A DNA stretch of 64,000 nt, taken from the NCBI GenBank assembly GCA_039030515.1, contig JBCCEA010000005.1, positions 32,001 through 96,000 on the forward strand, written 5' to 3'. Below, piece after piece: positions 12,173-62,353 of the stretch. A program made the translations under genes and the position numbers. Numbering within the stretch: position 1 is the first letter of the stretch; every line of letters begins with the position of its first letter. Under the pieces are notes generated by a model. It searched no databases. It was not told the origin of the DNA and was given only the letters and a program-made list of their open reading frames with translations. The DNA comes from Myxococcota bacterium (GTDB lineage Bacteria; Myxococcota_A; Polyangia; Polyangiales; Houyiibacteriaceae).

Positions 12173-12229
12173 ATAATGGAATAAATTTTTGCCATTGAGC
12201 TCTCTATAGGCAATAATAAATTCCATTAT
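12173..12229 (+). promoter_or_regulatory. Inverted-repeat operator region upstream of the hipB-like gene
   Basis: ATAATGGAAT (12173-12182) / ATTCCATTAT (12220-12229) perfect IR with inner TTGCC/GGCAA, overlapping the start codon. Confidence 0.65.
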
Positions 12230-12560
12230 GCTTCAGAAAACTTCAGAGCCGCATCCTGCTGTTCAGCGGATTCTCAAGAAGCTCGGAGCGAATATTCGCC
12301 TGGCACGCCTTCGTCGCGGGTTTTCAGCAGAGCTGGTCGCAGAGCGTGCGGGCATGTCTCGCCCAACCCTACGCGCAGTCGAACACGGTGAACCGAGCGT
12401 CAAGATCGGCTCATACGCGAAAGTGCTGCACACCCTTGGTCTGTATGAAGATCTCGCGCTTGTCGCACGTGACGATGCATTGGGAAGAAAGCTGCAGGAT
12501 GCCGACTTGCCTACCCGCCGAAGAGCGCGGAAGCGAACCTCCAAGGACCCGGCTCAGTGA
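12228..12560 (+). CDS. hipB: XRE-family HTH antitoxin (HipB-like)
   Basis: 'LGANIRLARLRRG...VAERAGMSRPTLRAVEHG...LARDDALGRKLQDA'; overlaps the hipA start. Confidence 0.85.
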   Translation: MLQKTSEPHPAVQRILKKLGANIRLARLRRGFSAELVAERAGMSRPTLRAVEHGEPSVKIGSYAKVLHTLGLYEDLALVARDDALGRKLQDADLPTRRRARKRTSKDPAQ

Positions 12561-13836
12561 GTGCGCGGCGCGAGATCGATGTGGTGGCGGATTGGGATGG
12601 CCTCGCCTGTCCCACCTTCATGGGAACGCTATCGGTCACGCAGGTACGAGGAAACGAGGTATTCGCCTTCGAATACGACACACAGTGGCTTGCATCGGCT
12701 TCACGACAGCAGCTCGATCCTTCGCTCCTGCTGTACCGCGGGCCGCAATACCCCTCGGGCGGGCGCAGCAACTTCGGCGTGTTCCTCGACTCCTCTCCAG
12801 ACCGCTGGGGCAGAGTTCTGATGCGGCGCAGAGAAGCTCAGCTAGCGCGAGAGCAAGGCAGGGATGAACGCAAACTACTCGAGTCTGACTACCTCTTGGG
12901 CGTGCACGATGGTCATCGGATGGGCGCGCTGCGTTTTAGAGTGGGTACGCGTTTTTTGGACGACAACGATCGACTCGCGTCTCCACCGTGGACCTCTCTC
13001 AGAGCGCTCGAGCGAGCGAGCCTTCAATTGGAGCGGCAAGGCGCAGAGGATGATCCGGACTATGGCCGGTGGCTGCAGATGCTTATCGCTCCCGGAGGAT
13101 CTCTCGGGGGTGCCCGACCAAAGGCGAGCGTCTGCGATGAACGCGGGAGGTTGTGGATTGCCAAATTTCCCAGCCGAAATGACGAATATGATACCGGAGC
13201 TTGGGAATTCGTGATGCATGCGCTGGCTACCGCCGCTGGTCTGACGGTCCCTGAAGCAAGAATCGAGTGCTACGGCCATGTCCGGGAGGAAGGTCGCGGG
13301 CATCGAACCTTCTTGAGTCGCCGCTTTGATCGTCTAGCAACAGGCGCTCGCCTTCATTTTTCATCTGCGATGACACTACTCGAACGTCAGGATGGTCACG
13401 ACGCAAACGATGGAGCCAGCTATCTTGAACTGGCCGACCTGCTTATGCGCCTCGGATCGAATACGTCGAGGGATCTCGAGCAACTGTGGCGACGCATCGT
13501 ATTCTTTATGTGCGTCTCCAATACAGACGATCATCTCCGCAATCACGGCTTTATGCTGAAGCGCGAAGGATGGGCCCTCGCTCCCGCATACGATATGAAT
13601 CCAGATGCATTTGGAGAGGGCCTGCGGCTCAACGTCTCCGAGACGGACAATGCTCAGGATCTCGAGCTCGCGAAAGCCACGGCCTCAGGGTTTCGTATAA
13701 AAAAAAAAGGGCCGAGGCGATCGTCACCGAGGTTGTACACGCGGTGCGTGGCTGGAGGAACGTCGCGACACGTCAGGGCATTTCTCGAGCGGAGCAAGAT
13801 AGGATGAAGCGAGCCTTTCGCTTGGCGGATGTGTGA
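12557..13836 (+). CDS. hipA: HipA-family kinase toxin, frameshifted at an A10 run near the C-terminus
   Basis: 'SLGGARPKAS', 'WIAKFP', 'RRFDR', 'NTDDHLRNHGF', 'LAPAYDMNP'. The typical C-terminus (RAEAIVTEVVHAVRGWRNVA...MKRAF, stop 13836) is in the -1 frame after the A-run at 13699-13708; the zero frame stops at 13807. Confidence 0.9.
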
Positions 13837-17373: not shown

Positions 17374-17592
17374 AATAAGACGCAATCGATACAGCAGTCT
17401 CCAATAGCTAGAGTCCTTGGAGTGGCTTAGGACGGATCGTAAAAGGCTGGTATTTTGCACGTCAGACGACAGCGCGGTGAACTTCGCCGAACCCACATGA
17501 TTGCGGTTTGGAGCTTGTTTGCCGCCATCGTTGCACTTCTGATGCGTCCCAGAGCACGCACGCTCACGCTCGTAAGCCAGGGGATCCACCGC
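17374..17592 (+). repeat. 219-bp direct repeat A, copy 1 (dead-end 5' part of paralogue 2)
   Basis: Aligns ungapped with 20315-20533, about 9 mismatches by manual count. Confidence 0.95.
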
Positions 17593-17819
17593 TTCCGGCA
17601 ATGCGAATTGACATCCCCCTCTGCTTTGACGTTTTCTGAACGCAGGCCATATCGACCAAGGTCTGTTTCGAGCAGCAAGCGAAGGTGTTCCGCAGGGCCG
17701 GGCTCTTTCCCATCTTATGTCAAACATCATGCTCAATGAGTTTGATCAGTGGCTAGAGGCGAAATACTTAAGCAAGAAAGCTCGCTGAGCATGGAACTTC
17801 GGCTACAGCAAACCCGGCC

Positions 17820-18295
17820 CATCTGTCGGCCTTCATCGACCTCTACGCTAGGCGCGTTGTCGGCTATGCACTTGCGGACCGTAAGCGCACTGAGCTGTCG
17901 CTCCAAGCCTTTCAGCGCTCCCTTGCACTTTGCGGTGTCGGCGCCTCTCTTATCCTTCACAGCAACCGTGGGGATGAATGCGCAAGTCACGACTTTCGAG
18001 TCCTTCTCCAAGCGGTAGGTGCCATGCAGAGCGTAAGCGAAGCCGGCAACTGCTACGACAACGCCGTTGCAGAATCCTTCTTCGCTTCACTCGAACAAGT
18101 CTTGATCATGCGCACCCGATTCGAGACACGACAAAACGCCATGGCCAGCGTCACCTACTACATCCATAATTTCTATAACCCTATACGGCGGCATTCCCAC
18201 AATGGGCTTGTCAGACCAGAGAAGGCCTTCCTTGCATCCTTTCAACCCCTGGCTGCTTGAACATTTCTTCTCTCCACTTTTTCCGGGCAACTCCA
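17820..18295 (+). mobile_element. IS3-family remnant (integrase-core C-terminal part plus right end)
   Basis: Frame reads 'FIDLYARRVVGY...LILHSNRG...SEAGNCYDNAVAESFF...FYNPIRRHS' (stop 18260); catalytic HSD reads HSN; IRR-like TCTCCACTTTTTCCGGGCAACTCCA ends at 18295; orfA and left end not found. Confidence 0.85.
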
Positions 18296-18444
18296 CCGGA
18301 AACATAAAGTTCCGAAGAAAGGGCATTTCAGCCTCTTTCAATCAGCTTTAATTTCATAATATTCCGTTTATACTGAAGACCGATCCATATGCAGTATTGT
18401 ATGAGAAGACAAGGCTCGATTGCTGAATACGGAGGAGGGCTTCC

Positions 18445-20304
18445 TTGATATTAGGGTTCGAAGAAGAACTTACAGACTACTTTAATCTCATCAAAAGATT
18501 ACGAACTATATCCCCAATTAACCAAGAACGAAGCCAAACAGTTCCACTAAACGTAATCGATAGCTTGTCCTACTTTCAAGACGGATCCGAACTTCAACTG
18601 GCCCCGATCGCTAACCAGCTGAGACTCGCCGCAAGCAACATTCCAAGGGCAACGATGACGATCCGCAAGCTCAAAGAAAAACAATGCTTTGTTCTCTTGA
18701 GTTATAGTCCTTACCCGCATTTTCAGATCTTCTTCCGCAGTCGTACATCCCCTGTCATCGCTGATAACCTAGCTCTTTTTGTCGCGCGATTCGCTTGCGG
18801 AGAGGGATGGCAACGATACAACGCCGTTCAGAGACTCGACATTCCCGTGCGCACTTTAAGACAGAGCGCATCCAAGCCTCATCACGTTGAGAGCATAACT
18901 GAGAGACATCCCTACCCCGCTCTGTGGCCAAACCACCCAACTACGTATGGTGAACAGTTCAGACACCCAACTACCGATAAACATGCCAGCAGATCCTCAC
19001 TACTTGTGCAAGCTTTTCAAATTGCGACATGCGGTACATCTTCTCAACGAAGTGACAACAACGAATCTCAGTCAACAGATGACGAATGTTCCGTATTCGG
19101 CATTACGCCTTTCTCGGGGTTCGCTGCAGTCATACGATTTATCCGACTGGGGAGATTAAGAGTTTTGAAGGTTGAACCTTGGCAACGAAGCCCAGGAGAC
19201 CGAGCGTGGTTACCCCTTCGAAAAAAACCAGATCACATAACAAAACACCACGCCATGGTGACAAAGATGTTGGCGGGACGAAGCCTTGTCGATGATGCGG
19301 TAGCGCATATCGTTCATTGGCTCACCCAGTGCATCGAGAATCATGCAAATGCCGCTGAGCAAGACAGAGACCTAGATTTTTCTCTGTCATCAAAACTCAT
19401 AGCAGCAAGCTGCAACGCATACTATGAGCCGAGAAACGCCGAGAAACGATACTCACACAAGATTGAGGCAAACCTAGACGACTATGCTGACCTCAACCGA
19501 TTAGCGAGAATATTTGTCGCGCACGTTGTAGGATACACCGAAGAGCCTATGAGCTTCCAAAAAATATGGACTCTACTTCGGTTCATCGAGAATTTCATCT
19601 ACTCTAGAAAGATCCATATCGAAACGATAGCAAGACAGCTAGATCACTATTCATTGAATATTTATCTGAACCGATCTAGCTTAGATGAATATGTAACAAA
19701 TTTCGCCCGAGAAATTAGTGCATTAAAACCAGGTCAATGCATTTTCAAACAAAGCGCCTTTGACGGACACGCAATACTTTATCTATTGTTTAGACCTACA
19801 GACCTGTTTATCCAAGGCAGCCCGATCTGCTTTATTGAATGCAACTCAGGTTATCGAGCAGAGAGAAACGGCACCGTTTTCGAGGAGAAAACTCAACCGT
19901 ACTCGGAACTTCGGGCATCGGTCCGTTGTGGGCGCACTTTCTTAAGAAGGCGTCAGATGGAAGAGATGATTATGCCTAATATTTATACGCTAAACTCGCA
20001 CCAAACATGTTCGGAAACAGAAGCGCTGTCGCGACTACTAGGTTATTGGACGCTACAATATCAGAATTCCTTGCCCAAAGATTCCGAAGCATATCAACAG
20101 AGCATCGAAGAACCTCATTGGTCGATTGAACACTATCATCTAGCAAGCTCTTTGAATCATCATCCGCACTTCTCCACACTTCGGCAAATCCTCGCAGTAC
20201 CAGCTCAAGCCGGTGTCAGCTGCACCACTCAGTCACTGCTTATGGGTCTTAGAGCTATGGGCGCGCTGTATTTGGGACCTGCTGTGACAACCGGTAAAGC
20301 TTGA
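18445..20304 (+). CDS. AT-rich orphan with a putative cysteine-protease domain (H...N...Q-x4-C)
   Basis: 619-aa ORF visibly more AT-rich than its flanks; 'DGHAILY', 'FIECNSGY', 'PAQAGVSC'. Start uncertain. Confidence 0.6.
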   Translation: MILGFEEELTDYFNLIKRLRTISPINQERSQTVPLNVIDSLSYFQDGSELQLAPIANQLRLAASNIPRATMTIRKLKEKQCFVLLSYSPYPHFQIFFRSRTSPVIADNLALFVARFACGEGWQRYNAVQRLDIPVRTLRQSASKPHHVESITERHPYPALWPNHPTTYGEQFRHPTTDKHASRSSLLVQAFQIATCGTSSQRSDNNESQSTDDECSVFGITPFSGFAAVIRFIRLGRLRVLKVEPWQRSPGDRAWLPLRKKPDHITKHHAMVTKMLAGRSLVDDAVAHIVHWLTQCIENHANAAEQDRDLDFSLSSKLIAASCNAYYEPRNAEKRYSHKIEANLDDYADLNRLARIFVAHVVGYTEEPMSFQKIWTLLRFIENFIYSRKIHIETIARQLDHYSLNIYLNRSSLDEYVTNFAREISALKPGQCIFKQSAFDGHAILYLLFRPTDLFIQGSPICFIECNSGYRAERNGTVFEEKTQPYSELRASVRCGRTFLRRRQMEEMIMPNIYTLNSHQTCSETEALSRLLGYWTLQYQNSLPKDSEAYQQSIEEPHWSIEHYHLASSLNHHPHFSTLRQILAVPAQAGVSCTTQSLLMGLRAMGALYLGPAVTTGKA

Positions 20305-20314
20305 ATTCTACAGA

Positions 20315-20533
20315 AATAAGACGCAATCGACGCAGCAGTCTCCGATAGCTAGAGTCCTTGGAGTGGCTTAGGCCGGATCGCAGAAGGCTGGTATTTTGCA
20401 CGTCAGACGACAGCGCGGTGAACTTCGCCGAACCCACATGATTGCGGTTTGGAGCTTGTTTGCCGCCATCGTTGCACTTCTGATGCGTCCCAGAGCACGC
20501 ACGCTCACGGTCGTGAGCCAGGGGACCCACCGC
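20315..20533 (+). repeat. 219-bp direct repeat A, copy 2
   Basis: Matches 17374-17592; continues into paralogue 2. Confidence 0.95.
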
Positions 20534-21410
20534 CCCAACGCAGCAGATCCTCCGTGTGCAGCTTTTTGGACGAGCACGGAGCCTTTGAGGCCCGACTCCT
20601 ATCGACTGCATGGAAAACCACAGTGGTTGACGCCGGGAGACCCCCCCCATAAACCAACAGGTCATTGGCGCTGTGGTCTTCCCGGGCTGCGAGATAGTGA
20701 TGAGAGCGCCCTGGAGCTTTTCTGAAGTCGTCCCTTCCCACCAAATTTGGGCGCACCCGCCAAGCAAAGCGGAGGGTCCTCCGTTATTCAGAACGATTTC
20801 GGTCCGAAAAGCACGGAGCGGCGAGGTTGCCGCCTGGTACGGCGTGGCAGGTCTTAAGCCGCCTATCGACCCGAGGGCGAAGTTCCGGAGGATGCTCAAA
20901 TTGCTTCCGCCCGACGTGAATGGGTTTCAAGGCATTTATGGGGAGGACGGCACCTTGGTTCTCCATCCTTCGCGGCACGTTGGACAGGTAGACGACTTCC
21001 ACGACGTCTATGATTGGGAGTTGGCCGTGCAGACACGGTGCATTTCTCAGGGTCTTGTCCCCAGGCAGCATGGACATGTTAAAGTCTTGTTTAAGCTCCT
21101 TGCACTCACGAATGGCATGACGCGGGTGAGCGGTCCTCAGCAGGAGCAAGCCGTGGAGGAACGTTTGAGATTCACTGAAGGGCAGATTCGCACGCGGGGA
21201 CTCGTGGGGTTTGCGTTTACTTTCAAACGCCGCCGCGATGGAGGATTCGATGGCACGTTGTACTGGACTTCACGGCAACTCAATTGCCTCATTCCAAATG
21301 CGGACGGCAGCGCTCCTCCTGAGGCAAGGCAGGCCATCGAGGTGGCGATGAGGGAGATCTTTCCGGGTACGCTCAGATCGGCTGCCCCCAATCCTCCCGG
21401 ATGCAAGTAA
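20396..21410 (+). CDS. Paralogue 2 of the orphan family, split by a +1 frameshift at a C8 run
   Basis: The 5' frame gives a hydrophobic helix, CAAFW and WLTPGDPP. Removing one C at 20641-20648 joins it to INQQVIGAVVFPGCE...QGIYG...HPS...HGH...WTSRQLNC...PPGCK. Confidence 0.75.
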
Positions 21411-53854: not shown

Positions 53855-55243
53855 GTGGAACAAATAGAGCGGAAGGACCGATATGCGTCAGCCGGCAGAG
53901 CCGGATTATCGACCGCTACCGTGATCGACCACTGGGGCAACCCGATCACGACGAAAAGCGACCGGGCCGTAGACGCTTTGAACCGCTTCACGCTCGCCTT
54001 TGCCGCGCATCGCGCAGAGGCCCAATCCCTTCTCGATGAAATTTCCTGCGCCGATCCGGATCTGACCCTTCTGTTCGTCGTCCGCGGCTTTTCGATCTCG
54101 TTCTTGATGCGAAACGATCACTGGCAGCACGCACGCTCGATGTGTACGCGCGCCAAGCACATCAGTTCTCAGAGGGGAGCGACCCCACGAGAGAAGGGAT
54201 TGATCGCTGCCCTCGAGGCATGGCTACGCCGCGACGTGGATGCGGCTATCGATATGCTCGAGAGCCTCGTAAGTTGCAATCCTCGCGATCTACTCACCTT
54301 CAAACTCACCCACGCCTGCAACTTCATTCTAGGCCGGCCTCAGAGGATGCGGGCCAGTGCGGAGCGCGCGCTGAAGTCCTGGCACCCGCTCATCCCAGGC
54401 TACGGGCACGCTTTGGGCTGTCTTGCTTTTGCTCTTGAGGAGACCGGTGACTACGAAACCGCAGAGGTCGTGGGCAGGCAGGCAGTGGAGGCTGAACCAG
54501 GCAGCGCTTGGGCGATCCACGCAGTGGCTCATGTATTTGAGATGACCGACCGCCAAAAAGTCGGCACCGAGTGGCTCGAGAGTCATCGAATCGCGTGGAG
54601 TCAGTGTGGCAATTTCGCCGGACACTGCACCTGGCACCTGGCACTGTTTCATTTGGAGCTCGGTGAGATCGAAGAGGCGCTGGCCCTATATCCATCGATC
54701 CGTTCACATATCCAGCAAGATTTCCGCGACTTCAGCAATGCGGCTTCCCTACTGTGGCGCCTGGAGCAAGAAGGCTGCACTCTCGATACGGAATGGAATG
54801 AACTCGCTCGGTTGGCAAAAGCCAACGCCTTCGATCACGGCTGCGCCTTTGCGGACGTGCACTACGCACTCATTTTATTGCAGGCGGGTCGCCCTGAAGA
54901 GGCCTTGAAGGCGCTCCGATCGATGCGCGCCTACGCCGAACCGAGAACGCATCACTTTGCGAGCGTTATTTCAAAGGTTGCGTGTCCCATCGTGGAAGGA
55001 TTGATTGACCTCGACCAGGGCAGAATCGAGACAGGTCTTGAATACCTGGAGTCCATTCAGGGCAAGACGCAGCCCATGGGGGGCAGTCACGCTCAGAGAG
55101 ATCTTTTTGAACAACTGTGGATCGCTGGTGCTGTGCGTTGGAATCAGGCCCAGATCGCCGAGAGCGCACTGCAGAGCCGGCTTCAGCGGAGGCCTCAAAA
55201 CCGCTGGGCCATCCAAAAATTGCAGACGCTAAAAGACGGCTAA
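53855..55243 (+). CDS. TTC38-like tetratricopeptide-repeat protein
   Basis: 'AFALEETG', 'WAIHAVAHVFEM', 'HCTWHLAL', 'ASLLWRL', 'GGSHAQRD'. Confidence 0.85.
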   Translation: MEQIERKDRYASAGRAGLSTATVIDHWGNPITTKSDRAVDALNRFTLAFAAHRAEAQSLLDEISCADPDLTLLFVVRGFSISFLMRNDHWQHARSMCTRAKHISSQRGATPREKGLIAALEAWLRRDVDAAIDMLESLVSCNPRDLLTFKLTHACNFILGRPQRMRASAERALKSWHPLIPGYGHALGCLAFALEETGDYETAEVVGRQAVEAEPGSAWAIHAVAHVFEMTDRQKVGTEWLESHRIAWSQCGNFAGHCTWHLALFHLELGEIEEALALYPSIRSHIQQDFRDFSNAASLLWRLEQEGCTLDTEWNELARLAKANAFDHGCAFADVHYALILLQAGRPEEALKALRSMRAYAEPRTHHFASVISKVACPIVEGLIDLDQGRIETGLEYLESIQGKTQPMGGSHAQRDLFEQLWIAGAVRWNQAQIAESALQSRLQRRPQNRWAIQKLQTLKDG

Positions 55244-55479
55244 CGAATATACTGCGCGCTGAATGCAATGCATTCGATAGCCGAATCTAGTGAGCAGTCG
55301 GGACGCGTCTGTCGCGTCTGATCGATGCGCTCACCGATTTAACTCGATTTCAGAAACCCGTCTCGTCGTGGACATCGCGTGTAGCGTGGCGCACGATGAA
55401 GGGCGTTCTATCAAAAGCTCTACGACCTTAAGGTCTGCAAGCTTCTGTGCACACCGCTCTCATTAAGAGAAATTCTGAT

Positions 55480-56352
55480 ATGACCGCGGAGGATCAGGCG
55501 GCGCGCACGATTCAGAGCATCGTACGTGGTTTCCTAGAAATTGGTCGTCGACGACATCTCGATCATGCTGCAAATGCAATACAGCGATGGTTCCGATCTT
55601 GTCAGGCGAGAGCCTACTTGCCCGAGCGCGTGTATGTCGATGGGGAAGGGGACATTTGCGTCCATTTCACCGCCGGAGTCTCATTCACGCTCGTTCCCCG
55701 AGACGTTGGGTCCCAAGACATCGAGATGGGGCCAACGGATAGATCTACCGCACGACTCGTTGCACAACGTCGGATCATAAGAACAAGCAAAGCTGTCCGA
55801 TGCGGAAACCCTGCATGTGGGAAAAGGGTCAGCAGCACAAGCAACCCGCCAGATTGGTGGTCACCAGCTGAAGTAAAGGCGCGAACGCTCTTTCTAAACG
55901 TCGGGGATCATGAAGGGGCCTTCGGCAACAGAGGCGGTTCTCAAGCTCGTCGCCCCGCCAGGACTAGCGGACTGTGTAGGAGCTGCCTGATGGAGGAGGT
56001 TCGCCGCAACGCTTTTGCAGGGATAGAGACAGGAGATCCCACCGGTTGCGACCCAGCCGCGACGCGCGAAGCTTTTCAGGCTTTGCTCGCCGCTTTGGAT
56101 GAGCGGCTCCCTATCCGCGTGGAGCACCTAGAATCCCCCCTACCCGTCGTTCAACCGCCTCCACAGAATGGAATATCGCAATACCAATGTAAAAAAAGAC
56201 CACTCCACTCTCAACTCAGGCATCGGATCAAAGTTGAGTGCTACTTTGCGTTCATCGTTTTCACTCTCATCGCCTGTGCTGCCCTTTTCGGATGGATCGT
56301 GTACGAGCACACCTATTCGTCTGACCGACTTCTCGGCAGCGTCAGCCCTTAG
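55480..56352 (+). CDS. Orphan with two IQ-like motifs, Cys pairs and a C-terminal TM helix
   Basis: 'AARTIQSIVRGFL', 'AANAIQRWFRSCQAR'; 'CGNPAC' and 'CRSC'; hydrophobic 'YFAFIVFTLIACAALFGWIVY'. Confidence 0.65.
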   Translation: MTAEDQAARTIQSIVRGFLEIGRRRHLDHAANAIQRWFRSCQARAYLPERVYVDGEGDICVHFTAGVSFTLVPRDVGSQDIEMGPTDRSTARLVAQRRIIRTSKAVRCGNPACGKRVSSTSNPPDWWSPAEVKARTLFLNVGDHEGAFGNRGGSQARRPARTSGLCRSCLMEEVRRNAFAGIETGDPTGCDPAATREAFQALLAALDERLPIRVEHLESPLPVVQPPPQNGISQYQCKKRPLHSQLRHRIKVECYFAFIVFTLIACAALFGWIVYEHTYSSDRLLGSVSP

Positions 56353-56419
56353 GGTAGCTGCAGGGACCAAACAGGCAGCTTTTCCTTTTCAAGCCACGCA
56401 TAGACTCCGTAGGTCTGCA
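56232..56419 (+). repeat. 188-bp direct repeat B, copy 1
   Basis: Aligns ungapped with 58086-58273, about 6 mismatches by manual count. Confidence 0.95.
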
Positions 56420-56724
56420 TGCCGCCAATCGCTCATGAAGCCGTCAAGAACGCGAGCTTTTTTCGCAACAAATCTATGAATTATTGAAATCGCTATCCTT
56501 TGGATGCACTTGGCGTATCAGCACAGAATAGCGAAGCCGATAATGCAATCAGGGTACTTAGAAGAGTTGATTTAGCGAGACGTAGAGCATGACAAATGAA
56601 GCTTGGATTCCTATTGATATCTCATATCTAGAAACAGCTCTTGCGCACTTGACCAGATGGACGTGACGTGCAGAGTTAAGGATGATATCCGAACAAGCAG
56701 GCCTCAGTCTCCGATGGATACTAG

Positions 56725-57906
56725 TTGATGAGTCTTAGTCCTACAAATACTGGCTCTGACCGACATGATCCAGTCGTTGACCCGCAAGTCAGGCCCCCTC
56801 CTGGTGCAGCACGTCAGCAGCGATGCAGAATGAGGCCTCAGTACTTGTTACTTCTCTACGTGGCAGTGCTTCTGCCTCACTATCGACGCATCGGAGCGAT
56901 CCTGCGAGGCAGAGGATTTGCACCCTTAGGTCCGGTACAACCACTCAATCGCTGGTCTTCTCCGGACACGACGCTTGCCTGGTCCGGCGACTTTGCATGG
57001 CCCAATAACTGGGTGAACGCGACGCATCCCTCCGGGGGGGCGCATCAAAGCGTTCTGCCTTGCGTGGCTCTATGGATCCACGAGTCGAATCCAACTCAAA
57101 TGCATCGAAATCCTGATGAGCCTGTCCTACAGGATCCCGGCAAATGGCTGGATAGAGACAAGTGCGTTCCGGTTCCCGGAGGCAGCCGAGCAGTGGTCGT
57201 CGTCTACCCGGGATGTGAAGCCACCGTGACGAGCAGTGACGGGGCGATGTCGGTTGTGGTGACCGCGGTAAGACCTCAAACATTTGCTACGGGAGAACAC
57301 TCTGGAACATATTATGTATCAGCTCATCCAGTGAATCCTAAAGAACAACGCATCCAAAATTGGTACGATATCCGCGGGACACCACCCCACATCAACCCCT
57401 CCCAACGATTTCAATACATGCTTGACAGTATGCCAGAGGATGTAACTGGGTTTAACGGTGTATACGGCACGGGTTTATTCGTCGTTCACGCTTCTCTCGA
57501 GCCATCCTTCATGATGCTATTTCGTCCGCAACGGCGTGCGAAGATGGAAGCAGGAATCGTCACTAGTCGGAGAACGGGACACGAGAAAGTCCTCAACTTT
57601 TTGCTCCGTGCTTACTACGGACCGGGGCCCGACCCAGATGCAGGCACAGTAGGATCACGACGACAACAGGCGCAGAACCTCATGAAGCAGCTGGACCTGG
57701 CAGGCTTTGCACTAGTGATGAAGAGAAACCGGAAAGGCTCCGTCGTCCGACTCGGACTGAGCTTCAAGTCGAGGGGGATCAATTGCCGAGGCTCGGGAGC
57801 CAACGGCCTCGCAGACGAGCGTATGCAGAGGGCTATCACCCGGAAAGTCGAGAGCCTATTCCAGGGGCCAGTAGTGAGGATCGAACATCCACCCGTTATG
57901 TGTTGA
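56725..57906 (+). CDS. Paralogue 3 of the orphan family
   Basis: Hydrophobic 'YLLLLYVAVLL', CVALW, YPGCE, FNGVYG, HAS, TGH, FKSRGINC, PPVMC. True start may be ATG 56830. Confidence 0.8.
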   Translation: MMSLSPTNTGSDRHDPVVDPQVRPPPGAARQQRCRMRPQYLLLLYVAVLLPHYRRIGAILRGRGFAPLGPVQPLNRWSSPDTTLAWSGDFAWPNNWVNATHPSGGAHQSVLPCVALWIHESNPTQMHRNPDEPVLQDPGKWLDRDKCVPVPGGSRAVVVVYPGCEATVTSSDGAMSVVVTAVRPQTFATGEHSGTYYVSAHPVNPKEQRIQNWYDIRGTPPHINPSQRFQYMLDSMPEDVTGFNGVYGTGLFVVHASLEPSFMMLFRPQRRAKMEAGIVTSRRTGHEKVLNFLLRAYYGPGPDPDAGTVGSRRQQAQNLMKQLDLAGFALVMKRNRKGSVVRLGLSFKSRGINCRGSGANGLADERMQRAITRKVESLFQGPVVRIEHPPVMC

Positions 57907-58085
57907 ATAGGGGCATCTGGGAGTGCGGGTGTCTGGGAGTGCTCTCGCTGCTGCCCTGCACCACGCTTCACGTAGTCAACCAACGTCTTCGCTTCCGGAA
58001 CAGACTCATGCACTCTCGGTTGAAAGAGCCGTAAGCACATGAACTCACCGCTTCCGTAGGCCCTAAATATCTCATATCAGATTAG

Positions 58086-58273
58086 AGTTGAGTGCTACTT
58101 TGCGTTCATCGTTTTCACTCTCATCGCCTGTGCTGCCCTTTTCGGATGGATCGTGTACGAGCACACCTATTCGTCTGAACGACCTCTCGGCAGCGTCAGC
58201 CCTTAGGGTAGCTGCAGGGGCCAAACAGGCAGTTTTTCCTCTTCAAGCCACGCATAGACTCCATAGGTCTGCA
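58086..58273 (+). repeat. 188-bp direct repeat B, copy 2 (contains the slt 3' end)
   Basis: Matches 56232-56419. Confidence 0.95.
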
Positions 58274-60527
58274 GCACTCTTCGGGTGTATCTTCGGGTTT
58301 CTTCAAATGGAATCGTTTCGATAAACGCGTCCAGAGGCAAGTCGCCACGGGAACGCAGCCATCGATTCACCGCCCCATGACCCGCGTTGTAGGCCGCAGG
58401 CACCAGGGCGGGGTTTTCGGCAAAACGATCCCAGAGAAATCGAATGTAGTGCGTGCCGATACGAAGATTGGTTTCGGGATCCCGAAGCGAAGCGGAATCG
58501 GAGGGAAGGTCAAGTTCGCTAGCGAAACGCTGGGCGGTAGGCTCGATAAGCTGGATGAGCCCGTACGCGTGCGCGGCAGAAACCGCACGAGGATTGAAAG
58601 CACTTTCCTCTCGGGCGATCGCACGAACAAATGAAGGAGCGATCTCTTCTGAAGCGGCAACTTGCTCGATAAGTGGCGAAAAAGCATTGGGGTAGGCAAG
58701 TCTCCACAGAGCCTTGCCTCCGGAGGGACTGGTGCGGCTTAGGCCAGGCAGACGTCCGCGTACCAGAGCGCTCGCTTGGGGTAACGCACCGGCCCTATCG
58801 AGCAGCGCGGCGGTCAGCCACAAAAGAGAGGCGTCGCTTCCCTCTCCCGTAGCGCCAAGATAGTCGAGTTCGATTTTCGCCAGCTCGATGTCCCCCACGC
58901 GAAGGAGATCGATCGCCCTGAAAAAGCCGGGTTGTTCCAGCTCAGTGCGATGGGGAAAGCGAAGATCCGCCGGCTTGGACGCATCACGCATCGAACTGAG
59001 GAGGCTCTCGGCGCGCGCTGCATCCAGCTCGCGGATGCGCATCAGAGACTGCTGAGCGTAGTAGCTGAGTGGATACTTTCGAAACAGCGACTCCCACTGC
59101 GAGAGCGCATCGTTAGGGCGTTCCAGTTCAGCGAGGAAGCGGGCGCGCCAATACTCACTTCGTCCAAGAGAGCCGTCTGTGGTTTCGGTCGTGCCCTCGT
59201 CGATCGCGGTGGTCAGCGTCTCAATCGCCTCCTCAATCGCCCCTTGGGTATGTAGATGCCAAGCCAACTTGAATCGCGCCCTTCCGCGCATATCGCCCTC
59301 TGGATATACGAGAGGTAGGGTCGCAAGCTGTTGGGCCATCGCCTCTTCGTCGTTCAGCTCTTTTGCGCAAAGCGCAGCGCGGTATCGGGCGTCGTCTGCA
59401 AGGCTGCTCTCCTGGTGGTCTCTTTCGAGCTGTCCGTATTGCTCTATAGCCTCTTGGTAGCGACCCAAACGGGCCAGAGCTCGAGCAGCATTGAACCGGG
59501 CGGCCGCTCTGACCGATTGAGTCCGGCATCGTGAGGCGACCTGCAGCATGTGCTCGGCTCCGCTGGCGCGCTTTCGCCGGCGCAGCATGGCGCGACCTTG
59601 CATCAACTGGGCCTCGCATTTCTGGGCCTCGCTCGCGTCTGTGCGGCCGGCGATGGCGCCAAATGCATGCTCTGCATCCTCATGCCTCATGGCCCGATAG
59701 AGTGCTTGGCCGTTCGCGAGCGCGTCTTCGACGGATGCCGAGCCGAGTTGACGGCGACGGGGCCCGGCGAGCTTGGCCAAGACTTTTCTCGAAGCCTCCG
59801 CAGCGTGACGGCCGGCGGAGGAAAGCGGCGCTCGACTCTGAACTCTTCTGTAGAGCCGCAAAGCCTCCTCCAGAGATTCTGGGGTCGCTCGGGCCTCCAG
59901 GATGCGCACCAAGGGAAATACCGCCGAGGCGCCGCCCACTTCCGGAGGCGTTTCTTGCAGCAGTGCGCGCAGCAGTGGCTCCGCCTCTTCGTGTCTGCCG
60001 GCTCGTTCAAGACCGCGGGCATGGATCCGCCGGGCCCGCAATGCCCCCGCCCATCCGGTCGCAAGGGGGCCGGTTTGCTTTGCAGCCGCCTCGGGATCGT
60101 CGACCTCGATCAGGCGCGCAAGCTGCAGCGCGGCCCACGGTGCAAGCGGCGCTCCGCTTTTTTCGATTCGGCGGTAGCTCTGCCGGGCCAATTGCAAAAG
60201 GGCCGGTTCCGACTCTGACGCTCGCGCACCAACCCAAAGCAAAAGCGTTTTCTCCTCCTCGGTCGCTTCGGGCAGCGCGTCGTCGACGATCTGTATCGCC
60301 TGGGCCGGCGTGCCAAACCGCCATGCCTGCTTCGCTCGCCCCAAGGCCGAGCTGGGGTCGACTCGGACGATATTCGGATCAAACCAGCTTCCCGATCCAT
60401 TTGAGTCCGGAATCATCCGGGAGGTTCCCGAGAAGCTTTGCGCGCTACACGTGCTGGAAAGGGTGGTCAACGCCGCAAAGGCCACCGAGGTATGCTTTGG
60501 GGTCCATCGGATTCGAAATGAGCGCAT
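58203..60527 (-). CDS. slt: Soluble lytic murein transglycosylase (Slt70-like, TPR + SLT)
   Basis: 'AIAREESAF', 'GLIQL', 'AYNAG', 'IPFEETRRYTRRV'; TPR-like helices. Confidence 0.92.
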   Translation of the reverse strand: MRSFRIRWTPKHTSVAFAALTTLSSTCSAQSFSGTSRMIPDSNGSGSWFDPNIVRVDPSSALGRAKQAWRFGTPAQAIQIVDDALPEATEEEKTLLLWVGARASESEPALLQLARQSYRRIEKSGAPLAPWAALQLARLIEVDDPEAAAKQTGPLATGWAGALRARRIHARGLERAGRHEEAEPLLRALLQETPPEVGGASAVFPLVRILEARATPESLEEALRLYRRVQSRAPLSSAGRHAAEASRKVLAKLAGPRRRQLGSASVEDALANGQALYRAMRHEDAEHAFGAIAGRTDASEAQKCEAQLMQGRAMLRRRKRASGAEHMLQVASRCRTQSVRAAARFNAARALARLGRYQEAIEQYGQLERDHQESSLADDARYRAALCAKELNDEEAMAQQLATLPLVYPEGDMRGRARFKLAWHLHTQGAIEEAIETLTTAIDEGTTETTDGSLGRSEYWRARFLAELERPNDALSQWESLFRKYPLSYYAQQSLMRIRELDAARAESLLSSMRDASKPADLRFPHRTELEQPGFFRAIDLLRVGDIELAKIELDYLGATGEGSDASLLWLTAALLDRAGALPQASALVRGRLPGLSRTSPSGGKALWRLAYPNAFSPLIEQVAASEEIAPSFVRAIAREESAFNPRAVSAAHAYGLIQLIEPTAQRFASELDLPSDSASLRDPETNLRIGTHYIRFLWDRFAENPALVPAAYNAGHGAVNRWLRSRGDLPLDAFIETIPFEETRRYTRRVLQTYGVYAWLEEEKLPVWPLQLP

Positions 60528-60817
60528 GGCTGCCTACAGTAAGAATAATGGTCTCATCACAGCAAATTCGCGAGCGCAGGTGGAGGCTCCCGGGCCGGTT
60601 TCTAAACCATGCGTGCAGGCCCGGGCACGTCGTTGATCGAGGGGAACGTCATAGAGCGAGACGTCATCAAAGGGAACGGCATCAAACGGGACGGCATCAA
60701 ACGGGACAGCATCGCTGCAGGCACCTACCGACGGCCCCCACGGAGTTGGCCCGCCAGCTGCCTATGTGATACGGACGCTGGCGTACGGAGGCGACGGTTC
60801 AGGCCATTATCATTGGG

Positions 60818-62353
60818 TTGCGTTATCTTCGCAGCAAGAAGCGCAGTACGATCTCACTCATCACCTTTATTGCGATAGCGGGTGTGGCACTTGGGGTCGC
60901 CGCCTTGCTCAGCGTGCTTTCGATCACCAGCGGTTTTCAGCGTGAGTTCCGGGACAAGGTCCTCGGGGTGAACTCACACGTACTGGTGCTGCGTTACGGC
61001 GTGGACTTTGACGAGTACCGCGAGGTGATCGCGCAGGTATCGGAGCTGCCTGAGGTGGTGGGTGCGGGGCCGTTCCTTATCAACGAGATGATGCTCGCCA
61101 AAGGCGAGGGACTCAGCGGGGTCTTGGTCAAGGGCATCGACCCAGCGCAGATGCGCGACGTACTCGACCTGCCCGGTCAGATTCTCAGCGGCACGCTCGA
61201 CGGTCTTCGGGTGCGAGGCGCACCGGTCCGCCCCTCCGATCTGGATCAGCCGCCGCGAGAAGACGGCGAACTCGACCGCTATCTGCAGCAGATGCGCTTG
61301 TCCGACCTGGACGCACGCGAGTCAGAGGCAAGCGACTCGGAGGAGACCCTTGGAGCGCGCGACAACCCGCATTCGACACCCGAGGCGGCTTCTCCCGAGA
61401 TGCCGTCACTCGCAGATGTGGAGGCCGCTTTACGCGCCCTTGAAGCAGACACGCAAGATCCGTTTTCGGGCATCGACGCGGAAATGGAACAAAGGATGCT
61501 GCAGAGCGAGCTCGCGGAGATCGAGCGAGAAGAAAGCGGCATCGACGCGCTTCCGGGCATCGTGATCGGTATCGGCCTGGCTCGGGAACTGGGCATCGGA
61601 ATAGGAGATCGGGTCAAGGTAATCTCGCCACTGACCGGTCTCGACATCGGAAGCTTTGCTCCTCGAGCCCGTACGCCTCGCAGCATCGATTTTCGGGTCG
61701 TCGCCATCTTCGAAGCGGGCTTTCAGGAATACGACACCAGACTCGTGTACGTCGATCTCTACGAGGCCCAGCGCTTCTACAACAACGGAGACTCGGTCAC
61801 CGGCGTAGAGATTCGTCTCGCCGACTTGGAGCTCGCAGACGAGGTAGCTCGCACTCTCGAGGAGCAGCTAGGCGCGCCTTTTCACACGCTGGACTGGGCG
61901 ACCTTGAACCACAATCTCTTTACCGCCCTAAGGATTCAGAAAGTGATGTTGAGTCTGGTGATCGCGACGATCATCTTTGTCGCCGCATTCAACGTGATCG
62001 CCACCCTCATCATGATCGTGCTCGAGAAGAAGAGAGAGGTGTCCATCCTCAAAGCGATGGGCGCTCGAGACCGCACCATATTGGGCATCTTCATGCTGCA
62101 GGGAACCGTCATTGGGGTTGTAGGCACCGCGATCGGCCTGACGGTGGGGGGCGCTGTGGTCGGCTACCTAGACCGATACCGTTTTCCACTCGATCCCAAA
62201 GTCTATTTGATCGACCACCTTCCAGTGGTGGTCAGTCCTTGGGAGTTCGCCACCACGGTCTTGGTCGCACTGACGATTTGCATCACCGCAACGGCGATTC
62301 CGAGCATATGGGCTGCAAGAATGCGTCCTGCAGAGGGAGTCCGCTACGAGTAG
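60818..62353 (+). CDS. LolC/LolE-type lipoprotein-releasing ABC permease
   Basis: 'LRYLRSKK', 'GVALGVAAL', 'VAAFNVIATL', 'ILKAMGA', 'YLIDHLP'. Start uncertain. Confidence 0.9.
   Translation: MRYLRSKKRSTISLITFIAIAGVALGVAALLSVLSITSGFQREFRDKVLGVNSHVLVLRYGVDFDEYREVIAQVSELPEVVGAGPFLINEMMLAKGEGLSGVLVKGIDPAQMRDVLDLPGQILSGTLDGLRVRGAPVRPSDLDQPPREDGELDRYLQQMRLSDLDARESEASDSEETLGARDNPHSTPEAASPEMPSLADVEAALRALEADTQDPFSGIDAEMEQRMLQSELAEIEREESGIDALPGIVIGIGLARELGIGIGDRVKVISPLTGLDIGSFAPRARTPRSIDFRVVAIFEAGFQEYDTRLVYVDLYEAQRFYNNGDSVTGVEIRLADLELADEVARTLEEQLGAPFHTLDWATLNHNLFTALRIQKVMLSLVIATIIFVAAFNVIATLIMIVLEKKREVSILKAMGARDRTILGIFMLQGTVIGVVGTAIGLTVGGAVVGYLDRYRFPLDPKVYLIDHLPVVVSPWEFATTVLVALTICITATAIPSIWAARMRPAEGVRYE

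Follow-up and report, generated by a model that had tools for sequence, protein, structure and literature searches.

An orphan gene between two copies of a convergent gene junction: a candidate natural duplication-insertion in a Myxococcota genome

Bacterial gene gain is usually explained by integrases, transposases, or double-crossover replacement in conserved flanks. Here we describe an orphan gene that lies between two direct copies of a 188-bp gene junction in a Myxococcota bacterium. The stretch of DNA analysed (hereafter the window) comprises 64,000 nucleotides (nt) of assembly GCA_039030515.1 (contig JBCCEA010000005.1, positions 32,001 to 96,000 of the forward strand, or C5:32001-96000 in the contig labels used below). 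At the duplicated junction an IQ-motif open reading frame (ORF) and slt, which encodes a soluble lytic transglycosylase, converge, and the orphan gene (the cargo) is inserted at the 2-nt overlap of their stop codons. Neither frame is broken, because the target is duplicated. The locus is best read as a natural duplication-insertion, that is, a small tandem duplication with DNA captured at its join, and the probability of this reading is put at roughly 0.55. Filled and empty alleles of the site both occur in nature.

The duplicated junction and its empty allele

A repeat search of positions 54000-61000 returned one long direct family, a pair at 56222-56419 and 58076-58273 (198 nt, 95% identity, spacing 1854). 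Pairwise alignment and a script define an ungapped core of 188 nt in this pair (Table 1), and 7 of the 10 nt preceding the core are also identical between the copies. The core holds the final 121 nt of the IQ-motif ORF and the final 71 nt of slt. The IQ ORF has its working end in the left copy and slt has its own in the right copy; the remaining halves are pseudo ends. An earlier note on this DNA, made from the letters and a list of ORFs, had described a 188-bp duplication with about six differences, overlapping stop codons and one completed gene in each copy; alignment, script and ORF list agree with it on all these points, as they do on the 1666-bp insert that leaves both reading frames whole. 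The right-hand pseudo IQ tail has stops upstream and no start codon, and is matched by tblastn to amino acids (aa) 252-301 of the IQ protein at 78% with one TAG. The whole assembly contains no third copy of the repeat (2 matches, 100% and 97%) and no second copy of the insert, which shows no similarity to the flanks and has a GC content of 0.53 versus 0.574 for the genome. In layout, the locus shows a contiguous target in two direct copies with nothing but unrelated DNA between them, and each copy runs on into a single-copy flank.

The six mismatches between the copies (56325, 56330, 56366, 56379, 56387 and 56409) all fall in the 3' half of the core. All six lie within the last 95 of the 188 nt, and the four that are seen in X1 (one of the runs described below) lie within the last 54 nt; the probability of such clustering by chance is ~0.017 and ~0.007, respectively. 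Gene conversion of the central part may have produced this pattern, or a diverged copy may have come in. An RNA structure, such as an slt terminator, that preserves the identical first 134 nt was considered and rejected: folding z-scores are -0.05, 0.46 and -0.94, and terminator-like matches are no more numerous than in shuffled sequences.

The genome is a metagenome bin of 75 contigs that is 85% complete. The stretch is present in four runs (X1-X4) of one marine study, whose assembled contigs, not reads, were compared. In X1, possibly the source sample, the left flank contig ends at 56261 (depth 21.8), a shared-repeat contig of 134 nt covers 56232-56365 (depth 43.8), the insert contig covers 56336-58115 (depth 22.5), and the right flank starts at 58190 (depth 25). 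These contig ends and the doubled depth fit a graph of flank, repeat, insert, repeat and flank, in which the repeat occurs twice per genome. The X1 contigs connect the insert with the repeat at either end; X2 (56390-58115) has the insert contig as well, X3 has parts of it, and the right joint is present in both of these runs. The X1 copies are alike up to 56365/58219, and the window differences at 58179 and 58184 are absent from the X1 contigs. The right-hand contig of X3 begins at 58185, directly after these two sites, where the window may show a minor variant or an error in the consensus of the bin.

The earlier note had suggested looking in related genomes for the site with a single copy, and X4 contains such an allele. 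Record 23 of this run (795 nt, depth 5.58) consists of 56106-56311, five other letters, and 58171-58754. The skip of 1859 less the five letters equals 1854, the repeat spacing; therefore, the record is colinear through one 188-nt copy and lacks the insert. Its left part (206 nt) differs at 10 positions and its right part (584 nt) at 13; it therefore derives from a related strain, roughly 95-98% identical, and not from the same strain. X2 probably holds the same kind of empty allele. No X2 contig spans the site, and the indication comes from a contig of depth 10 that ends at ~56420, with G at 56366 and C at 56387, and from another that agrees with X4 in having G at 58263 and C at 58308.

Four of the variable repeat sites are visible in the empty allele, which has G,C,C,G there; the left copy has A,C,T,G and the right copy has G,T,C,A. 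If the empty allele serves as outgroup, two changes are private to each copy. The pseudo and working slt tails differ by two amino acid replacements (P>S and E>K) and two silent sites; the replacements are the private changes of the pseudo tail, and the silent sites are those of working slt. Polarising the slt-tail changes by more distant relatives failed, as the relevant positions vary among them. Simple left/right recombination between the two copies in the window would not yield G,C,C,G, and the pattern gives no evidence of loss. For this reason, we infer that gain of the insert is favoured over recent loss from the structure of this lineage. In 30 related genomes no empty site was found, the best slt match being 49% identical and no close relative being present; the related slt loci, taken with 1.5-kb flanks, contain no IQ or cargo homologue. 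Scans of metagenome contigs with slt and with a 36-mer of the repeat gave no match.

Joints of the insert and the origin of the locus

Sensitive genome searches matched the non-coding ends of the insert to three places: C26:23702-23980 and the outermost parts of contigs C23 (at its start) and C38 (at its end), both of which break at the match. All three are copies of the leader of an insertion sequence (IS). In the C23 copy the reading frame continues into the N-terminus of a PF13808 (DDE_Tnp_1_assoc) domain (E 8.7e-11), which we take to be typical of the ISAs1 family. The insert opens with the leader of this IS: the ungapped alignment of 56420-56510 (minus strand) with the C23 leader has 66 of 91 positions identical and a score of 41, as against 9.1 +/- 1.3 and a maximum of 16 in 500 shuffles. 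The similarity sets in ~7 nt inward of the IS tip and ends with the transposase ATG, and the next base belongs to slt codon -23. The scar is 72% identical to the resident IS copies and therefore was not copied from them recently. The earlier statement that no transposase is visible is thus not supported, in that the insert begins with a 91-nt IS leader cut at the transposase start codon. Neither the cargo ORF nor a 141-aa antisense ORF has a match in Pfam, PHROGs or NCBIfam, so that no transposase gene or other recombinase gene was found in the insert by these collections, and there is no terminal inverted repeat, the sole inverted pair (20 nt at 80%) being internal.

On the plus strand, the left joint (56419/56420) reads GGTCTGCA followed by TGCCGCC. 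Native slt reads GGTCTGCA followed by GCACTC, and the IS reads GGTCCACA followed by TGCCACC. The two sources overlap by exactly 2 nt within a microhomology patch of 6 of 8 nt; at the right joint (58085/58086), 7 of 10 nt match. The left joint is considered non-homologous because it lies inside the IS, not at its tip, and has microhomology alone. It appears to have been made by illegitimate, microhomology-guided joining, and by neither transposition nor homologous crossover. On the minus strand (56349-56420), the cut leader heads, on paper, a chimeric ORF of 23 codons in which the transposase ATG is fused in frame to the last 22 pseudo-slt codons; this ORF is probably meaningless.

The target-site duplications of IS elements range from a few to about 15 bp. 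Insertion of an IS or transposon with target-site duplication was rejected here: the duplication measures 188 bp, the IS is cut internally, and its outer tip faces the cargo and not the target.

In the favoured duplication-insertion, the 188-bp stretch over the overlapping 3' ends of the IQ ORF and slt would have been duplicated in tandem, and 1666 bp would have been captured at the join, namely the IS leader cut at its start codon, the AT-rich promoter-like stretch that separates leader and cargo gene, and the orphan gene itself. Both joints would most likely have formed by non-homologous, microhomology-guided joining. By one possible route, a linear fragment consisting of IS leader and cargo would bridge sister chromosomes, its ends joined in crossed order to two points that lie 188 bp from each other. 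By another, replication would switch template to a donor and return 188 bp upstream. Because the target would be duplicated rather than cut, both flanking frames would stay whole, and the event could survive selection. Of the two mechanisms suggested in the earlier note, repair-associated capture fits the non-homologous joint better; integration of a circle by a single crossover is disfavoured as the origin by a joint that lies in the IS leader and has microhomology. Its further suggestion, excision by homologous recombination between the copies, is plausible here, since such loss is described for engineered duplication-insertions in the account given in PMC5389514.

Several points weigh against the favoured reading. 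A source sequence for the insert side is at hand for the left joint alone, which limits the reading of microhomology to that joint, and both patches were picked out after the fact. Neither Ku nor RecT was found in the genome (85% complete), and consequently no end-joining or annealing enzyme can be named. The clustering of the copy differences in the slt part is not predicted by a single recent event. Secondary loss in the other lineage could have given rise to the empty allele, whose letters at 58179/58184 are not visible because 91 of the contig differences are unlisted. The IQ ORF may not be working, which would weaken the argument that selection keeps both genes. Finally, the evidence consists of contigs from one study, and no read spans both repeat copies.

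Campbell-type (ends-in) integration is unlikely as the origin, yet it is the first alternative to be weighed. In this scheme a circle, or a fragment cut within the repeat, carries the 188 bp plus the cargo and enters by one crossover, which yields exactly the observed architecture. The 4-6 differing sites would fit a diverged incoming copy with a crossover in the identical first 134 nt, and exchange is possible in that insert-bearing and empty strains co-occur (at low depth in X4, probably in X2). However, the scheme leaves unexplained how the 188 bp came to adjoin the insert; it needs a prior non-homologous event, because the left joint lies inside the IS leader with microhomology alone. Moreover, the putative incoming copy has two protein-changing slt differences and no private silent ones, as expected of an already non-functional fragment. 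A single-crossover circle could spread the finished structure but not explain its origin; however the insert was acquired, both novel joints once needed non-homologous joining.

A two-step history is a shade more doubtful. In one version, the IS and a neighbouring gene break the overlap, and the intact end is restored by duplicative repair from an uninterrupted strain; in the other, a tandem duplication comes first, and its functionless middle takes mobile DNA that is trimmed later. The IS scar at the edge of the insert suits such a history. So does a locus on C26 (Table 1), which looks less eroded: its insert starts precisely with the true tip of this IS, and at its far end an IS66 transposase is cut short. 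The co-occurring empty-site strains could donate intact ends, and donor and recipient alleles would explain the divergence of the copies. On the other hand, more events are required than in the one-step model, and the contigs of the four runs contain no intermediate, be it a broken slt or a full IS at the site.

Improbable, in our view, is a miniature integrative element moved by a recombinase encoded elsewhere, in which the repeats would be attachment sites and the spare gene ends would be carried along. Precedents are at hand in what is written of prophage e14, which leaves a 163-bp pseudo icd' duplicate and a whole icd (PMC6379469), and of the H47 island, which is described as lacking its own recombinase and as excising and integrating through host functions (PMC3191183, PMC5426353). 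The genome has five matches to tyrosine recombinases (PF00589). Against this, there is no other copy of the insert, the repeat occurs genome-wide only as this pair, no common motif is seen by eye at the edges of three loci compared, and the left edge is a truncated IS, not the arm of an attachment site. An e14-like element with its own integrase was rejected, as no tyrosine or serine recombinase lies within the insert and the nearest PF00589 match is 16 kb away (C5:106100); within that distance there is also no integron integrase. An H47-like island with attachment-like repeats was rejected as well, given two repeat copies in the genome and no match to the 36-mer of the repeat in metagenome contigs.

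The serial stitching of two strain haplotypes of one junction during assembly, for which the fragmented and incomplete bin and the two of six window differences not seen in X1 contigs might speak, is highly improbable: the shared contig of X1 has double depth while the insert has that of the flanks, the contig ends fit two copies, the insert-repeat joins recur across runs, and a truncated gene end that abuts an insert is a rearrangement that merging haplotypes cannot create. The misassembly or haplotype merging allowed for in the earlier note thus hardly accounts for the locus. The locus corresponds to a duplication-insertion in its architecture and its single-copy allele, and to neither a transposon insertion nor an integrase-borne element.

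Genes at the locus and similar loci

The features of the locus are collected in Table 1, together with the comparable loci discussed below.

Table 1. Positions of the duplicated junction, its insert and flanking genes, and three further insert-between-repeats loci
Feature	Sequence	Positions	Strand	Description
IQ-motif ORF	window	55447..56352	+	301 aa; hydrophobic C-terminal tail; Pfam IQ 23.9 bits (cut-off 20.3)
Left repeat copy	window	56232..56419		working IQ-ORF end (to 56352) and pseudo slt tail (56349-56419, minus strand)
Insert	window	56420..58085	+	1666 bp between the two repeat copies; missing from the X4 contig spanning the site
IS leader scar	window	56420..56510	-	stretches from close to the outer IS tip as far as the transposase ATG (CAT at 56418-56420); transposase body missing
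Cargo gene (paralogue 3)	window	56725..57906	+	393 aa from TTG 56725; 358 aa from ATG 56830 (public gene call)
Right repeat copy	window	58086..58273		working slt end (58203-58273, minus strand) and pseudo IQ tail (58086-58206)
slt	window	58203..60527	-	soluble lytic transglycosylase with TPR repeats; 774 aa, whole; Pfam SLT 2e-28
Second locus in the window	window	17374..20533		219-bp repeat (17374-17592 / 20315-20533), 95.9%; 2722-bp insert, 46% GC
C27 locus	C27	6358..12106		128-bp direct repeats (6358/11978) around a 5.5-kb islet
C26 locus	C26	22833..28863		887-bp direct repeat (22833/27977), 93%; 4.3-kb insert

Relatives of slt are found in 30 of the 31 genomes searched, this genome included, and its C-terminus resembles theirs. 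The gene is clearly under purifying selection, to judge from the strain differences, since 19 of the 24 listed are silent. The IQ ORF has no homologue in the protein collection, where the ORF itself was also not found. Over 56138-56234, 3 of its 10 differences to the X4 strain are silent, and no difference is listed for its hydrophobic tail (56241-56311). Its working status is uncertain: the gene may be evolving fast, or it may be in decay.

The cargo protein has a predicted N-terminal membrane helix. Three paralogues occur in this genome at 29-34% identity, two in the window and one on C11, and the alignment of the family contains invariant residues, among them a C-terminal cysteine. The homologous-protein search returned the cargo protein itself as its sole match, and a profile search of 1.84 billion representatives gave 7 matches, 4 strong and 3 weak or repetitive; by length and profile range, the 4 strong ones are taken to be the genome's own paralogues. 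Nothing usable was obtained from the ESM Atlas. The AlphaFold model has a pLDDT (predicted local distance difference test) of 60.6, and Foldseek found nothing for it at E <= 0.001; a wide structural search reached a top Z of 6.8, inside the stated noise range of the tool. The cargo is thus an orphan, a putatively membrane-anchored protein for which no clear relative was found outside this genome. Its GC content at third codon positions (0.56 versus 0.64-0.72 in housekeeping neighbours) is near the values of the IQ ORF and paralogue 1. A former continuation of the cargo frame into the duplicated IQ tail was rejected: the frame is the same, but four stops lie in between.

The paralogues in the window have features of their own. 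Paralogue 2 (20396-21410) changes reading frame near eight consecutive C at ~20700, as a frameshifted pseudogene or through a homopolymer assembly error; the N-terminal part, which includes the membrane helix, is in ORF 20396-20725. Paralogue 1 is surrounded by sugar-nucleotide genes, and directly upstream of these a small helix-turn-helix-like ORF overlaps a 416-aa ORF (12228-13807), a pair that by eye has the look of a HipB/HipA-type toxin-antitoxin system.

Comparison of the genome with itself gave 23 same-contig direct pairs with our own filters and 39 with looser ones, and 11 were examined. Seven of these lie in tandem paralogue arrays or older, larger duplications, and the idea that all repeat pairs represent the same phenomenon was accordingly dropped. 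In the other four, the studied locus included, the insert is unrelated to its flanks, so that a scan of the sort proposed in the earlier note brought to light three further loci of this kind, with repeat pairs of 128-890 bp. These three are known from the assembly sequence, the support from the metagenome runs applying to the studied locus.

The second locus in the window contains one orphan ORF of 619 aa. By eye, its repeat comprises the upstream region and first codons of paralogue 2, and the right copy continues into the gene. A small protein, duplicated at C5:118876-122100, shows weak similarity to the C-terminal third of the 619-aa protein (blastp E 2.5e-7). The C27 islet, ~70 bp downstream of a tRNA-Thr gene, encodes an AbiEi/AbiEii toxin-antitoxin pair, a sigma-70-like protein and a TetR regulator; no integrase was found among the ORFs scanned. 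The C26 insert holds an orphan ORF of 740 aa, and by coordinates its repeat covers the upstream region and ~690 nt of a 281-aa gene that is whole solely in the right copy.

These loci raise the tentative and, at present, doubtful idea that the lineage repeatedly gains orphan genes by microhomology-joined duplication-insertion, often near IS remnants, and duplicates 130-890 bp of target each time. If it were true, gene gain would be recombinase-free and reversible, and would never break essential or overlapping genes, even inside overlapping gene ends. Compact genomes could then try new genes reversibly, provided that other loci share the mechanism.

Tandem arrays of orphans with eukaryote-like motifs are also seen by eye in this genome. 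The array at C2:182394-188200 has IQ-like repeats (552-615 aa, about 46% GC), that at C25:12445-16186 has F-box-like and WD-like repeats, and that at C1:50973-53180 has RING-like zinc fingers and membrane tails at the C-terminus. Relatives of SpeA, 49-70% identical, come from Polyangiaceae and other Myxococcota bins.

Comparison with known systems

A keyword-level search of the literature found no description of a natural, recombinase-free bacterial insertion with a target duplication of ~200 bp. For annotation, a warning follows: pseudo gene ends of 70-120 nt beside orphans can mark duplication-insertions.

In homology-facilitated illegitimate recombination, foreign DNA reportedly enters transformable bacteria with at least one microhomology joint, as here. 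One end is said to be anchored by true homology, and target DNA is usually replaced or deleted; a flanking 188-bp duplication is reportedly not the usual outcome.

The H47 island of E. coli, as portrayed in two reports (PMC3191183, PMC5426353), is likewise small, is bounded by long imperfect direct repeats, and has no recombinase of its own; empty, hybrid sites in other strains and RecA-independent excision are described there. It differs in that it measures 13 kb, its repeats behave as attachment sites and are widespread in E. coli islands, and its mobility was shown experimentally. At the studied locus, the repeats are plainly a duplicated piece of local genes, and the locus is known from sequence alone.

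Prophage e14, which resides in icd of E. coli, comes close in the length of the duplicated gene end (163 bp versus 188 bp) and in leaving the target whole with a pseudo end on the far side, according to the description in PMC6379469. In that description, however, e14 is a prophage that encodes an integrase, uses a defined attachment site and brings the spare gene end along. The studied locus carries a single orphan gene and lacks a recombinase; its duplication takes in the ends of two convergent genes at once, and a truncated IS forms one edge of the insert.

The closest likeness is to engineered Dup-In constructs of E. coli and Salmonella, which are drawn as 'ends-in' bridging of sister chromosomes and are lost by homologous recombination, in the account of their designers (Nasvall, Knoppel, and Andersson, 2017; PMC5389514). 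As at the studied locus, a cassette there lies between direct copies of a short target region, and the flanking genes are intact. The constructs are described as products of lambda Red with designed homology arms some tens of bases long (PMC5389514), whereas the studied locus is natural, no Red-like enzyme was found, and the single readable joint has 2 exact bases in a 6-of-8 patch. If the favoured reading is right, an architecture built on purpose by geneticists also arises naturally, in this case with one non-homologous joint that can be read down to its microhomology.

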